A stretch of DNA of 64,000 nucleotides from NCBI RefSeq assembly GCF_016026235.1, contig NZ_CP065613.1, one strand, 5' to 3'. This document shows positions 27,577 to 32,323 of this stretch, piece by piece. Every line of letters starts with the position of its first letter. The first letter of the stretch is position 1. Below the pieces are notes generated by a model. That model was not told where the DNA came from, made no database searches, and worked only from the letters and a program-made list of their open reading frames with translations. Both the position numbers and the translations under genes were made by a program. The stretch is from Escherichia coli. GTDB taxonomy: Bacteria > Pseudomonadota > Gammaproteobacteria > Enterobacterales > Enterobacteriaceae.

Positions 27577-27866
27577 TGGTGGATTTACGTAAAGCGGCGC
27601 GGGGGCAGATGTGCACCGTCAGAATTCCTGGCTACTGCAATCACGATCCGGAAACGTCTGTGCTGGCGCATTACCGACTGGCGGGAACGTGCGGAACAGC
27701 GACAAAACCACACGATATGCAGGCGGCGATTGCCTGTAGCTCATGCCACGATTTAATCGACGGGCGGGTAAAAACAAGCGATTACACCAAAGAAGAATTA
27801 CGCCTGATACATGCAGAAGGTGTTTTTCGCACGCAAGAAATCTGGAGAAAGGAAGGTTATTTATGA
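27576..27866 (+). CDS. Hypothetical nin-region protein (96 aa), resembles DUF1364/YbcO
   Basis: Cys/His-rich (CTVRIPGYCNHD…CSSCHD). Confidence 0.45.
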   Translation: MVDLRKAARGQMCTVRIPGYCNHDPETSVLAHYRLAGTCGTATKPHDMQAAIACSSCHDLIDGRVKTSDYTKEELRLIHAEGVFRTQEIWRKEGYL

Positions 27867-28417
27867 TTTACCCAACAAATACAGGCAAAAGCGGGGAACA
27901 CCTTCGTCTCACCACGCTGGAAAGTGTCTGGATTCAGGGAAAACTGCGCATGTGGGGGCGCTGGTCGTATATTGGCGGCGGTAAGACGGGGAATATGTTC
28001 AACCAGTTGTTGGCCTCTAAAAAGCTGACAAAAACGGCAATTAACGAGGCGCTCCGGAGGATGAAAAAAGCAGGTCTGGACAAACCTGAACTTGAGGCTT
28101 TTTTGCGGGATATGATCAACGGCAAGCAAAAAAGCTGGCTGGTGCATTGTACTGACGCAGAGGCGTTATGCATTGATCGGGTGATTAGTGAAGTGCTGGC
28201 AGAACACCCAGGATTGATTTGTATCCTCCGGCAACGATATGAAGGGAGTGGGATGACTAAGCGAAAAATGGCTGAATTGCTGAATGATTCACACCCTGAG
28301 TGGTGTTATCGGACGTGTTGCAGTCGGGTTGATGTATGGCTAAATCTTGCTGAATATATGCTCTATCTACCGATGCGTGATGCATTCTCTTCCGGGGATC
28401 TAAAAACCGTCTGTTGA
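27863..28417 (+). CDS. Putative late-gene antiterminator (Q-like)
   Basis: 184 aa from ATG at 27863 with SD AGGAAGG; position upstream of pR'-like promoter, tRNAs and lysis genes; Cys-rich C-terminus. Confidence 0.45.
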   Translation: MIYPTNTGKSGEHLRLTTLESVWIQGKLRMWGRWSYIGGGKTGNMFNQLLASKKLTKTAINEALRRMKKAGLDKPELEAFLRDMINGKQKSWLVHCTDAEALCIDRVISEVLAEHPGLICILRQRYEGSGMTKRKMAELLNDSHPEWCYRTCCSRVDVWLNLAEYMLYLPMRDAFSSGDLKTVC

Positions 28418-28689
28418 CTCAATCTGTTATCCGGGGCTATATTCCTCACGCGCCAGCAAAATCTGGCGTCGGGATTGGCGTCCCGGATGTTTACGGAGCG
28501 ATATGAGACGCGCCCGCGTCTTTTTTCATATCGTTTGCACAGTCTCATTCGCGATTTATGGCGGGCTGTGTGGGGGAGCCGAAAGGCTCGCCGGTTTCCG
28601 TACCCGGTTACGCCAACCCTGCACAGTTCGCCACCAGTTCGATTGGCGTCGTCGGTGGCGATAATTTCCAAATGTACGGAGTTATCGTT

Positions 28690-29247
28690 ATGACCACTCA
28701 AATCTCTGTTGAAACTCTCTCCCCGATCACCCATAACCAGATTCCTGTTATTACCACCGAACTTTTGGCGCAGCTTTACGGCACTGAGCCGGTGCGTATT
28801 CGCCAGAATCATCATGAGAACAAAGTACGCTTCGTTGAAGGGAAACACTTTTTCAAAGTTGTTGGTAATGACCTTAAAGAATTGCGGGTAGCTTTAAACT
28901 ACTCACAAAATCCCATCTCTCCCAAAGCCCGCTCCCTCATCCTCTGGACAGAACGAGGCGCAGCACGCCACGCCAAAATGCTCGAAACCGATCAGGCGTG
29001 GGATGTGTTCGAAAAACTGGAAGACTGCTATTTCAGTCAAAAGGATCCGTCAACGCCAGTTTCATGCCAGAAAAGTTACGACACGCGAGTTCTCTGTTAT
29101 CAGAGAGGCGGTGTCACTGTTTCCACAATTCAGTTACGGGATGATGATATTGTTATTTCCCTTGAGTCATGGCTGGAACTGGCGAGAGCCAATGGTTGGT
29201 TTGTTGTTCGCAGAGATAAACTGGTGGAAAGGTTGATGCAGCTTTAA
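28690..29247 (+). CDS. KilA-N/Bro-N-type antirepressor-like protein
   Basis: MTTQISVETLSPITHNQIPVITTELLAQLYGTEPVRIRQNHHENKVRFVEGKHFF… resembles phage antirepressor N-terminal domains. Confidence 0.5.
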   Translation: MTTQISVETLSPITHNQIPVITTELLAQLYGTEPVRIRQNHHENKVRFVEGKHFFKVVGNDLKELRVALNYSQNPISPKARSLILWTERGAARHAKMLETDQAWDVFEKLEDCYFSQKDPSTPVSCQKSYDTRVLCYQRGGVTVSTIQLRDDDIVISLESWLELARANGWFVVRRDKLVERLMQL

Positions 29248-29338: not shown

Positions 29339-29368
29339 GAAAGAGCCCGCTTTATGCGGGTTTTTTTA
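29339..29368 (+). terminator. Rho-independent terminator (tR'-like)
   Basis: AAAGAGCCCGCTTTATGCGGGTTTTTTTA. Confidence 0.55.
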
Positions 29369-29455
29369 TACCTGAAAAACGGCACAGGACGTTAAACGTG
29401 CTGGTGGTCAGATGAGTTTGCAGATGTGATGACATATGGTTATTATTCTGCCTCC

Positions 29456-29532
29456 GGCCCTTTAGCTCAGTTGGTCAGAGCGAGCGACTCATAATCGCCA
29501 GGTCGCTGGTTCAAGTCCAGCAAGGGCCACCA
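29456..29532 (+). tRNA. tRNA with anticodon CAU (Ile2/Met-like, ileZ-type)
   Basis: Cloverleaf by eye: acceptor GGCCCTT/AAGGGCC, anticodon loop CTCATAA, T-arm GCTGGTTCAAGTCCAGC, 3' CCA encoded. Confidence 0.8.
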
Positions 29533-29533
29533 A

Positions 29534-29610
29534 CCACCACTAGCTCATCCGGATAGAGCATCAACCTTCTAAGTTGACGGTGCGAGGTTCGAGTCCTCGG
29601 TGGTGGGCCA
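29534..29610 (+). tRNA. tRNA-Arg (anticodon UCU) with atypical 5' C-start acceptor stem
   Basis: Acceptor CCACCAC/GTGGTGG, anticodon loop CTTCTAA, T-arm CGAGGTTCGAGTCCTCG, CCA encoded. Confidence 0.65.
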
Positions 29611-29612
29611 GC

Positions 29613-29688
<76 letters not shown>

Positions 29689-29691
29689 TAT

Positions 29692-29766
<75 letters not shown>

Positions 29767-30058
29767 GTCAGAGTCTTTCAGTCTGCGATGATGGGAAATC
29801 CCGGAGTGACTGAAAGACGTTTAAGTTATGAATGATCGCCTTTTTTTGCAAAATTGCTGTGCAGAAATACTAACCTTCGGGCGTGCGATCATTCATAAGC
29901 ACTCTGCTTTTATTCCGATTAACTGTGGGTGGTTTGTTGGATAGAGTGCTTTCCTTACTGTATATATCGTTTCGCCCGCTTTTGCGTTTTTTTCTTTTCA
30001 AATCCCTTTCATTTCTCAGTGTAAAACTACGCCATCCGTTATTTGCGGAGGTGAGGCT

Positions 30059-30274
30059 ATGAAATCCATGGACAAAATTTCAACGGGCATTGCCTACGGC
30101 ACCTCCGCCGGCAGTGCCGGCTACTGGTTTTTGCAGTGGTTGGATCAGGTCAGTCCATCACAGTGGGCTGCGATTGGTGTGCTGGGAAGTCTGCTTCTGG
30201 GGCTTCTGACTTATCTGACGAATCTGTATTTCAAAATAAGAGAAGACAAGCGTAAGGCTGCACGGGGAGAGTAA
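30059..30274 (+). CDS. Class II holin / pinholin (phage 21 S-like)
   Basis: 71 aa; [28 protein letters not shown]… two TM helices and charged C-terminus; SD GGAGGTGAGG. Confidence 0.85.
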
Positions 30275-30277
30275 ATA

Positions 30278-30907
30278 ATGAAGCATGAAGAAATGAATCA
30301 GCGATTCAATCACCTGGAAAATGAAATCACTGAGCTTAATAAAAAATTGTCGGCGTTGGTGAGTTCTGAAGATGAAAACAAACGCCGCGATGAGCATTAT
30401 GCGGCGATTTACGATTACTGCCACAAAGTCGCTCACGAGACTTTTATGAAGTTTTTGCAGGAAAAGTTTTTACCGGCCGCATTGTCAGAAAAAGAGGCGG
30501 CTTACCTGCGGCCTGAGTACGTCATTACGGTTAACAGTGCCGGAGAGGAAGAGCATAAAAGTGATTTTATTGCGTCTGCACCGGATAAAGACCAGGAACC
30601 CCGTCGGCCTTTCAGGGTTTCCTGTGAAGAGGGTGAGTTCGTCGTTTATGAGAACGGAAAACCTGTCCGGGCATCGCATCATCACTGCCTGAAAATTATT
30701 AATCTCGCTATCAGATGCCTGAAAGACGAAAACACCAGAGTTATGAAACGCATTGGCCGTTGCATGGGGTATTTGCAGGTGGCGGCAGAGATTGAAGCAC
30801 TTGCCAGTGGTGCAGACATGGATGCTGCGGTGCGGGAGGCTCTTCTTCGTGATTTCAATACTCCCCCTTTAAGAAAGAGCCTGATGACTGGATCCAGCCG
30901 GGGCTGA
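30278..30907 (+). CDS. Unknown 209-aa protein inserted between holin and endolysin
   Basis: ATG 3 nt after the holin stop, SD GGGGAGAG; N-terminal coiled-coil-like segment, several Cys/His; no family recognised. Confidence 0.5.
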   Translation: MKHEEMNQRFNHLENEITELNKKLSALVSSEDENKRRDEHYAAIYDYCHKVAHETFMKFLQEKFLPAALSEKEAAYLRPEYVITVNSAGEEEHKSDFIASAPDKDQEPRRPFRVSCEEGEFVVYENGKPVRASHHHCLKIINLAIRCLKDENTRVMKRIGRCMGYLQVAAEIEALASGADMDAAVREALLRDFNTPPLRKSLMTGSSRG

Positions 30908-32011: not shown

Positions 32012-32323
32012 ATGAAAATTTATATTGCCGGGCCAATGACGGGATATGAGAACTTTAATCGTGACGCCTTTAATAAAGAGGCAGATCGTTTGTCACGACA
32101 TGGTCACTCTGTCTTGAATCCAGCCACTTTGCCTAATGGTCTGACACAACGTGAATACATGGATATTTGCTTTGCAATGCTTCGTTGTGCGGATGCTATT
32201 TTGATGCTTCCTGGCTGGAAAGCGTCTGCTGGAGCAACTGCTGAGTATCATTACGCATACAAGATGGAGATGCCGGTATTCACTACGCTGAATTACCCGC
32301 CAGCTTGTTCCTCTGCAGTATAA
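32012..32323 (+). CDS. Small protein with a nucleoside 2-deoxyribosyltransferase-like N-terminus (DUF4406-like)
   Basis: 103 aa beginning MKIYIAGPMTGYENFN…VLNPATLP…; sits between the lysis and packaging modules. Confidence 0.45.
   Translation: MKIYIAGPMTGYENFNRDAFNKEADRLSRHGHSVLNPATLPNGLTQREYMDICFAMLRCADAILMLPGWKASAGATAEYHYAYKMEMPVFTTLNYPPACSSAV

Follow-up and report, generated by a model that had tools for sequence, protein, structure and literature searches.

The window analysed here, a stretch of 64,000 nucleotides of Escherichia coli DNA (contig NZ_CP065613.1), carries a conserved structured RNA in the gap between a prophage tRNA array and the holin gene of the lysis cassette. This RNA is composed of three consecutive hairpins (HP1, HP2 and HP3). 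Its structure is conserved by covariation and is read on the + strand; it begins a few nucleotides after the last tRNA and lies between a positionally conserved promoter-like site and a terminator, eroded in the window. A 14-nt perfect inverted repeat, the most conspicuous feature of the gap, is the closing helix (P1) of the central hairpin HP2 (29826-29898), a three-way junction of 73 nt. This family of three-hairpin RNAs linked to prophage tRNA arrays is apparently undescribed. A plausible, if far from assured, function is that the RNA corresponds to the 3′ trailer of the prophage tRNA operon, released as a stable non-coding RNA that acts through an invariant loop.

A perfect inverted repeat closes the central hairpin

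The preliminary description of this region reported a 13-bp perfect inverted repeat, with 47 bp between its arms, in a gap of about 290 bp between the tRNAs and the holin gene. Both statements were confirmed and slightly refined. The gap measures 292 nt, from the tRNA-Gly gene (29692-29766) to the gene of a phage-21-type holin (30059-30274), and each arm is longer by one base: TTATGAATGATCGC (29826-29839) and GCGATCATTCATAA (29885-29898) are 100% complementary over 14 nt and separated by a spacer of 45 nt. The window contains no other perfect inverted repeat whose arms reach 14 nt or more with no more than 100 nt between them. A chance origin was ruled out by dinucleotide-preserving shuffles (n = 100), in which such repeats occurred at a mean of 0.02 per window, two of the 100 shuffles containing one. 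A second perfect inverted repeat, of 11 nt (29773-29783 / 29808-29818), lies upstream of the first, and the whole gap folds more stably than shuffled sequences (z = -3.95).

The 14-nt repeat encloses two inner hairpins, HP2a and HP2b, which together with P1 make up HP2; HP1 and HP3 stand on either side. The parts of the RNA are as follows:

29773-29818, + strand: HP1, made of a perfect lower stem of 11 bp, an internal loop that is invariant and an apical GGG/CCC stem (11-nt inverted repeat and alignment).
29826-29839, + strand: left arm of the inverted repeat, 5′ strand of helix P1 of HP2 (repeat search and covariation).
29843-29867, + strand: HP2a, an 8-bp inner hairpin pairing 29843-29850 with 29860-29867 (98% of cells paired).
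29874-29881, + strand: HP2b, a small inner hairpin, CC[UUCG]GG, which in HK639-type copies is CUGACC[UUUG]GGUUCAG (alignment).
29885-29898, + strand: right arm of the inverted repeat, 3′ strand of helix P1 of HP2 (repeat search and covariation).
29899-29949, + strand: HP3, a long hairpin of 8 + 6 + 4 bp with a conserved 3′ strand, GGGUGGUUUGUUGGA, and several G·U pairs (alignment).

Downstream of HP3, an A/U-rich spacer precedes the terminator, and the full RNA, from HP1 to the terminator, measures about 185-230 nt. The loop of HP2a, 9 nt long (AAAUUGCUG, 29851-29859), is nearly invariant. In one divergent lineage (loci L181 and L152) the sequence of HP2a is replaced, a hairpin being retained there together with all 14 outer pairs. 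The internal loop of HP1 resembles a kink-turn (K-turn) when compared by eye with the published consensus: a 3-nt bulge (G29787-U29789) is followed by G29790·A29805 and A29791·G29804. This pattern is invariant in 22 of 23 sequences, the Fels-1-like lineage deviating from it, and we ascribe to it the weak matches of HP1 to C/D-box small nucleolar RNAs in Rfam (E = 1.6-8). HP1 and HP3 are modular. HP1 is optional, being missing in lineages that fuse the tRNA straight to HP2, and other lineages carry a different 3′ hairpin. A T-box-like reading of HP3 and a hammerhead-like reading of HP1 were dropped after inspection by eye, since the defining cores are missing and Rfam is silent. The inverted repeat does not have the features of an intrinsic terminator either: its interior is 45 nt long, it is followed by GCACUCUGC instead of a U-run, and a terminator scan made no call at 29826-29898.

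The structure is conserved by covariation on the + strand

Two scans of viral contigs with conserved words led to 148 loci containing the central hairpin, with 61 distinct core sequences. The comparison between the window and the phage HK639, 75% identical in this element, already indicates how the structure evolves: all three hairpins still pair, through two-sided changes. In P1, one A-U pair is replaced by U-A and one U-A pair by G-C, alongside one G·U pair and one A·C mismatch, and the 11-nt upstream repeat and the third hairpin exhibit the same kind of paired change.

Across 43 distinct HP2 sequences, 92.9% of the cells of this hairpin are paired, against 29-52% when the partners are slid by one to three columns. 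P1 is paired at 92-93%, with four of its 14 pairs changed on both sides, HP2a at 98%, including a switch from U-A to C-G, and HP2b at 86%, again with two-sided changes. For the complete structure of 50 pairs in three hairpins, 23 distinct full-length sequences could be aligned; 96.5% of the cells are paired (38-47% when slid) and nine pairs have changed on both sides. In this alignment, the lower helix of HP1 is 98% paired (two pairs changed on both sides), the outer helix of HP3 95.6% (four pairs) and its inner helix 99%. A first RNAalifold run, on a noisy alignment of 32 sequences, had recovered only HP2a and part of HP3; cleaner alignments were used afterwards.

G·U cells outnumber A·C cells by 136 to 24, and R1, our covariance model of HP2, scores 87.6 bits on the + strand versus 20.6 bits on the - strand. 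This excess and these strand scores indicate that the constraint acts on an RNA transcribed from the + strand. The preliminary description had envisaged a regulatory hairpin in the late transcript. This idea holds in so far as an RNA structure is present on the strand of the late transcript; it has to be amended in that the repeat forms one helix of a larger conserved RNA, tied to the tRNA array.

The RNA lies in a putative promoter-tRNA-terminator unit

The elements that flank the RNA in the window are the following:

29418-29446 (29417-29446 in the scan), + strand: sigma-70-like promoter of the tRNA array, TTGCAG-17-TATTAT, counterpart of pT of phage 933W (consensus scan of the sequence only).
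29456-29766, + strand: array of four tRNAs, Met/Ile2(CAU), Arg(UCU), Thr(UGU) and Gly(UCC) (ARAGORN; 56-70 bits with the Rfam tRNA model).
29974-29999, + strand: eroded intrinsic terminator, GCCCGC-TTTT-GCG followed by a T-run (comparison with relatives).
30059-30274, + strand: phage-21-type class II holin, first gene of the lysis cassette (Pfam PF04971, E = 1e-35).

In the window, tRNA-Gly ends at 29766 and HP1 begins at 29773; the RNA is thus located directly after the last tRNA and on the same strand, as expected for RNAs of the 3′ external transcribed spacer (3′ETS) type. In about 107 of the 148 loci, HP2 is preceded within 70 nt by the end of a tRNA, in most cases Gly-UCC, the distance being 59 nt in the presence of HP1 and 1-3 nt in its absence. 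The same linkage is observed in Yokenella and Citrobacter, and in E. coli CFSAN029787 an identical gap is immediately preceded by tRNA-Ile, -Arg, -Thr and -Gly in the RefSeq annotation. Several loci without a called tRNA retain a degenerate tRNA 3′ half, HK639 and Fels-1 among them. The remnant in HK639 (L001, 2937-2988) is a hybrid pseudo-tRNA that is identical to tRNA-Gly(UCC) from the anticodon loop on and has an unrelated 5′ half; it is not called by ARAGORN and scores 27.5 bits with the Rfam tRNA model, just under the threshold.

The arrays themselves are diverse. Position 2 is hypervariable in related loci (Lys, Arg, Phe or Leu), and several tRNAs have anticodon loops that ARAGORN cannot assign. 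One tRNA carries a UUA 'stop' anticodon and is a possible suppressor, and the Yokenella copy is associated with a Gly-like tRNA with a UUC anticodon.

The promoter-like site is conserved in position: in about 45 of 72 diverse loci, exactly 9 nt separate the end of the -10 hexamer from the first tRNA (TTGCAA or TTGCAG, 17 nt, TATTAT). The mean best sigma-70 score in the 110 nt preceding the first tRNA of these 72 loci is 8.6, compared to 6.9 in background windows. As far as can be judged from the sequences, the conservation of this pT-like site implies that expression of the tRNAs and of their trailer independently of the late antitermination protein Q is possible.

The terminator is well formed in many relatives, those with an intact copy presenting GCCCGCTTTTGCGGGC-TTTTCTTTT, and a perfect-stem terminator is found at most 300 nt downstream in 69 loci. 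The HK639 record, in which GenBank annotates only terminators in this stretch, has one right after the element. Among copies of the window type, terminators of equal length form a series from GCGGGC through GCGGGT and GCGGT to GCGT (seen in the window and in loci L144, L107, L106 and L121), each step having a longer T-run and a shorter stem. The window is the weakest member, with a stem reduced to 3 bp, and the terminator scan makes no call there. With such an eroded terminator, this copy may read through more, or be functionally weakened.

Lysis genes are the usual downstream neighbours. Of 89 diverse loci, 56 have lysozyme-type open reading frames (ORFs) after the element and 49 have S21-type holin ORFs, the latter starting at a median of +232 nt from the start of HP2. 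No protein gene of unknown function co-occurs consistently with the RNA; recurrence is limited to lysis genes and a mixture of Q or Rus genes. In the window, the holin gene is followed by a 209-aa ORF, a lysozyme gene and Rz/Rz1. The 209-aa ORF (30278-30907), located between the S21-type holin and the lysozyme, has no Pfam match and is annotated as hypothetical in RefSeq; related cassettes such as that of L100 have the lysozyme gene directly after the holin gene, with no such ORF between them. An ORF resembling DUF4406 and nucleoside 2-deoxyribosyltransferases is present at 32012-32323, just after Rz/Rz1.

Upstream of the array, a Q-like gene (27863-28417) encodes a DUF1133 protein with a weak match to Phage_antitermQ. 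Directly after it we observed a strong promoter-like sequence, TTGACT-18-TATATT (28414-28443), and a terminator-like hairpin (28505-28522), which probably correspond to pR′ and tR′. A C4-type antisense RNA (28554-28638; Rfam RF01695, 77.6 bits) and then an ORF6N/Ant-like ORF (28558-29247) form an antirepressor module similar to immI of phage P1, located within the apparent late leader, downstream of the Q-like gene. An 8-nt complementarity between our RNA and this C4-like RNA was judged to be due to chance; it falls inside the closing stem of the latter. A further terminator-like hairpin with a T-run, detected by reading of the sequence, precedes the tRNA array at about 29340-29368.

Distribution among prophages and genomes

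Of 5426 complete E. coli genomes, 529 (about 10%) contain the gap with 95-100% conservation and without annotation, and it is also present in four E. coli phages. Nearly all copies in E. coli are of the window type, the HK639 type being found in only about 10 genomes. In the phage HK639 itself, the late leader carries the element downstream of tR′ and ahead of another annotated terminator. The number of copies per genome has a median of one place and reaches four, always in the same context; the window has a single copy. In CFSAN029787 (L217), which has a 292-nt gap 100% identical to that of the window, three places match the gap. The place that we examined in this genome has a short Q-family gene directly before the tRNAs and no C4/Ant module, illustrating the mosaicism around the unit.

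Beyond E. coli, a scan of species-representative genomes (four true matches and about 15 chance matches) added Citrobacter sedlakii, Yokenella regensburgei, Phytobacter ursingii and a metagenome-assembled genome of Pseudocitrobacter. HP2 is also carried by the Salmonella phage Fels-1. Most of the new loci from a 15-mer scan of viral contigs turned out to be chance matches, and an apparent match to the Stx2a phage (Stx, Shiga toxin) H30 proved to lie in a different prophage within that record.

Possible functions of the RNA

If the RNA is indeed the trailer of a prophage tRNA operon, this operon would consist of the pT promoter, the tRNAs, the trailer RNA and the terminator, and would lie inside the late leader, after the Q region and before the lysis cassette. 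The unit would be transcribed from pT in lysogens and, during lytic growth, also by Q-modified polymerase reading through. RNase P and RNase E would then cut out the tRNAs, freeing the trailer as a stable non-coding RNA, as for the 3′ external transcribed spacer of the glyW-cysT-leuZ operon. The freed RNA could act in trans on an RNA or protein partner via the exposed loop of HP2a. We infer the release, the stability and the trans action of the trailer by analogy with this cellular example. The 3′ end resembles that of small RNAs (sRNAs), with an A/U-rich spacer ahead of a hairpin and a U-tract, and HP3 with the terminator of HK639 presents a weak, sub-threshold similarity to the Hfq-binding RNAs istR (26 bits for a threshold of 45) and isrB (22.5 bits for a threshold of 35).

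Several observations weigh against this proposal. No target was found: complements of the HP2a strand with its loop and of the HP3 motif had no significant match elsewhere in the window, and the trans-acting step is one that we purely infer. With its many invariant stem positions and its K-turn-like HP1, the RNA looks more like one that adopts a tertiary fold or binds a protein than like a simple base-pairing sRNA. Erosion of the terminator, in the window and in a sizeable share of the E. coli copies, is unexpected if a defined 3′ end is needed. The covariation comes largely from two clades and a few divergent lineages, so that the number of independent events is modest, yet it is consistent in every helix. 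Finally, the tight linkage to the lysis cassette fits a role in cis equally well.

Such a role in cis is possible, although we lean towards the trailer RNA. Excision of the tRNAs by RNase P and RNase E would break the late transcript and leave an mRNA with a 5′-monophosphate; hairpins directly after the last tRNA would sequester this end and shield the lysis and morphogenesis mRNA from 5′-end-dependent decay by RNase E. They could also define the processing site of the tRNA 3′ end. The spacing is in line with this explanation, since the first hairpin stands 1-8 nt after the tRNA whichever module leads (about 6 nt for HP1, 1-3 nt for HP2 when HP1 is missing), as are the constant presence of the lysis cassette downstream, the modularity of the hairpins and the position of the structure on the + strand. 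However, a protective hairpin needs no set sequence, whereas near-invariance across genera is seen in the loops and at many positions of the stems, and three domains, including a three-way junction, exceed what protection needs. Moreover, a terminator normally stands between the element and the lysis genes, and Stx phages with tRNA arrays in the same slot do without the element.

We consider it unlikely that the K-turn-like HP1, HP2 and HP3 pack into a tertiary structure that binds a protein or a small ligand. A possible output of such a sensor would be control at the downstream terminator, and hence of pT leakage into the lysis genes, or the titration of a host factor. The invariant internal loop of HP1, which by eye fits the K-turn consensus with its 3-nt bulge and tandem G·A/A·G, the invariance inside helices beyond the needs of pairing, the low z-score of the fold (-3.95) and the terminator of variable strength directly downstream could all be explained in this way. 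Nevertheless, inspection by eye revealed no alternative antiterminator pairing conserved in both main types, no match was obtained to any riboswitch or ribozyme family, and a conserved partner gene was not found. The fact that HP1 and HP3 are dispensable in some lineages argues against one obligatory tertiary fold.

A more specific version of the trailer RNA proposal, which we regard as speculative and somewhat less likely still than a sensor, involves the host sRNA RprA. In HK639-type copies, the loop and 3′ strand of HP2a contain AAUUGCUGUGUG, identical to the first 12 nt of processed RprA, and the window copy shares 10 nt of it. Comparison of positions 29849-29861 of the window with rprA (L194, 573-678) delimits the common sequence as AAUUGCUGUG(UG), the 12 nt being complete in the HK639 type. 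A cut by RNase E in the HP2a loop (A|AUUGCUGUG), similar to the site that generates processed RprA, would expose a 5′ seed identical to that of processed RprA, which might hijack part of the RprA regulon in lysogens. The match may be due to chance, the probability of which we roughly estimate at about 1% after allowing for about 100 sRNAs. The region of RprA known to pair with rpoS overlaps the shared 12-mer by only 4 nt, and RNAduplex runs with the rpoS leader on long inputs gave uninterpretable duplexes. Processed RprA corresponds to the last 47 nt of the RNA (PMC9262595). No further similarity to RprA was detected, and the Rfam RprA model is silent on both the window and HK639. If this idea were correct, the phage RNA could reach envelope stress, biofilm and conjugation control; more generally, large K-turn-containing tRNA-trailer RNAs could form a class by which temperate phages reprogramme their hosts.

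It is very improbable that the repeat is a DNA-level feature, i.e. a scar or target of cargo exchange, a recombinase site or the remnant of a miniature transposable element. The preliminary description had compared the gap with the slot in which Stx phages carry stxAB, and this comparison is borne out by the order in 933W: pT, tRNAs, terminator, stxAB and S. The Salmonella phage Fels-1 (L193, 2600-3241) also carries cargo here: a moron ORF, STM0906.1n, the start of which resembles a signal peptide, has been inserted with a partial HP2 left arm on one side and a complete HP2 on the other. After this HP2 comes a different 3′ hairpin, in common with locus L027. A moron beside a duplicated partial left arm implies that the edge of the hairpin can be a recombination junction. 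Homology between mosaic prophages often breaks at module edges, and that of the HK639 hybrid pseudo-tRNA begins in the anticodon loop. An insertion sequence (IS) of the IS3 family (orfA/orfB) is present right after HP3, before the holin gene, in L100 (8590-9746), L171 and L048. However, the compensatory changes and the strong excess of G·U over A·C indicate selection on a + strand RNA, the element is usually single-copy (median of one place, up to four) in a constant context, and nearly all relatives are free of cargo. The set of terminal repeats, target duplication and many unrelated sites expected of a miniature inverted-repeat transposable element or an IS remnant was not observed, and the flanks do not duplicate.

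The scar of cargo exchange suggested previously is largely refuted by covariation: the arms co-vary to retain pairing. In addition, hundreds of prophages (529 of 5426 genomes; 148 loci) have the repeat conserved and without cargo, and 933W has no copy of it anywhere between Q and S. The Fels-1 moron at the hairpin edge is a partial echo of cargo exchange.

Lastly, a small protein is hardly credible: a 38-codon ORF (29828-29944) does exist, starting at an ATG within the left arm, and in two phage records the gap is spanned by an annotated 'hypothetical protein', but the ATG is replaced by TTG in HK639-type copies and most relatives, the T-run after the left arm differs in length even between close relatives, shifting the frame, and substitutions track the pairing pattern, not codon positions.

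The tRNA arrays of lambdoid late leaders, including those of Stx phages, are usually discussed only as a codon supply. Our analysis indicates that many of them carry a conserved structured passenger RNA, so far unannotated, which occurs in about one tenth of E. coli genomes as well as in several enterobacterial genera besides Escherichia. As a stable trans-acting RNA, it would give prophages a tRNA-linked way of supplying their hosts with regulators; as a cis-acting one, it would illustrate how phages handle the mRNA breakage caused by tRNA excision just before the lysis genes. Under either reading, its structure can be tested, and it makes a concrete candidate for a new RNA family.

Comparison with known RNAs and phages

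A search of the gap against Rfam 15 gave no match at E ≤ 1 and only noise at E ≤ 10. The families remaining below the gathering threshold include AgvB, AsxR, STnc100/PasD-like, Esr41, IsrK, C4, RprA, T-box and ribozymes. A full-text literature search with strings of the conserved sequence retrieved nothing relevant.

Several sRNAs of pathogenic E. coli (PasA/PasC/PasD, AgvB, AsxR, STnc100 and Esr41) are encoded in the region from Q to S, the moron slot of lambdoid prophages, adjoining the holin/lysozyme operon and often near tRNAs (bioRxiv 10.64898/2026.05.13.724894; PMC8550237). We located the Pas loci of strain E2348/69 from the coordinates in the supplement of the study of RNA interactions through ligation and sequencing (RIL-seq); PasB is situated between tail genes, and PasA and PasC after an esterase gene. 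Comparison of the PasA, PasB and PasC loci with our element by blastn with a word size of 7 gave only chance matches (E ≥ 0.26), and PasD was covered only indirectly, via Rfam STnc100. According to the RIL-seq table, PasA is encoded on the strand opposite to the holin gene, unlike the present RNA, which is on the late strand and fused to the tRNA array.

The put RNAs of HK022 and HK639 are also structured RNAs of lambdoid operons located upstream of terminators, in their case acting in cis, and HK639 carries both kinds. The putL-like RNA of HK639, just downstream of pL, has no match to model R1. In contrast to put RNAs, the present element is not promoter-proximal to pL or pR, and HK639 has in addition a Q protein for late antitermination.

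Phage 933W, with ileZ-argN-argO upstream of stx2AB, offers a parallel in gene order. Its tRNAs occupy the same slot between Q/tR′ and the lysis genes, pT is annotated directly before the first tRNA (L216, 1583-1611), a terminator follows the last one, and the first tRNAs are about 90% identical to those of the window. The difference lies in what follows the tRNAs, which in 933W is the terminator alone and then the stx cargo; a search with the covariance model found no HP2-like element between Q and S of this phage.

The virulent phage T4 produces two small structured RNAs of unassigned function, the stable RNAs C and D, which are co-transcribed and co-processed with a tRNA cluster; our RNA can be likened to them by description only. 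Another counterpart is 3′ETS-leuZ, an Hfq-bound sponge RNA from the glyW-cysT-leuZ operon of E. coli, which measures about 50 nt and contains little beyond the terminator hairpin. Both RNAs directly follow the last tRNA of a polycistronic operon, on its 3′ side; 3′ETS-leuZ ends at the intrinsic terminator of that operon, as the prophage RNA probably does where the terminator is intact, and in both cases release by tRNA processing would yield a stable RNA. The prophage RNA differs from 3′ETS-leuZ in its much larger size, in its three covarying domains, in being phage-borne and in its conservation across genera.

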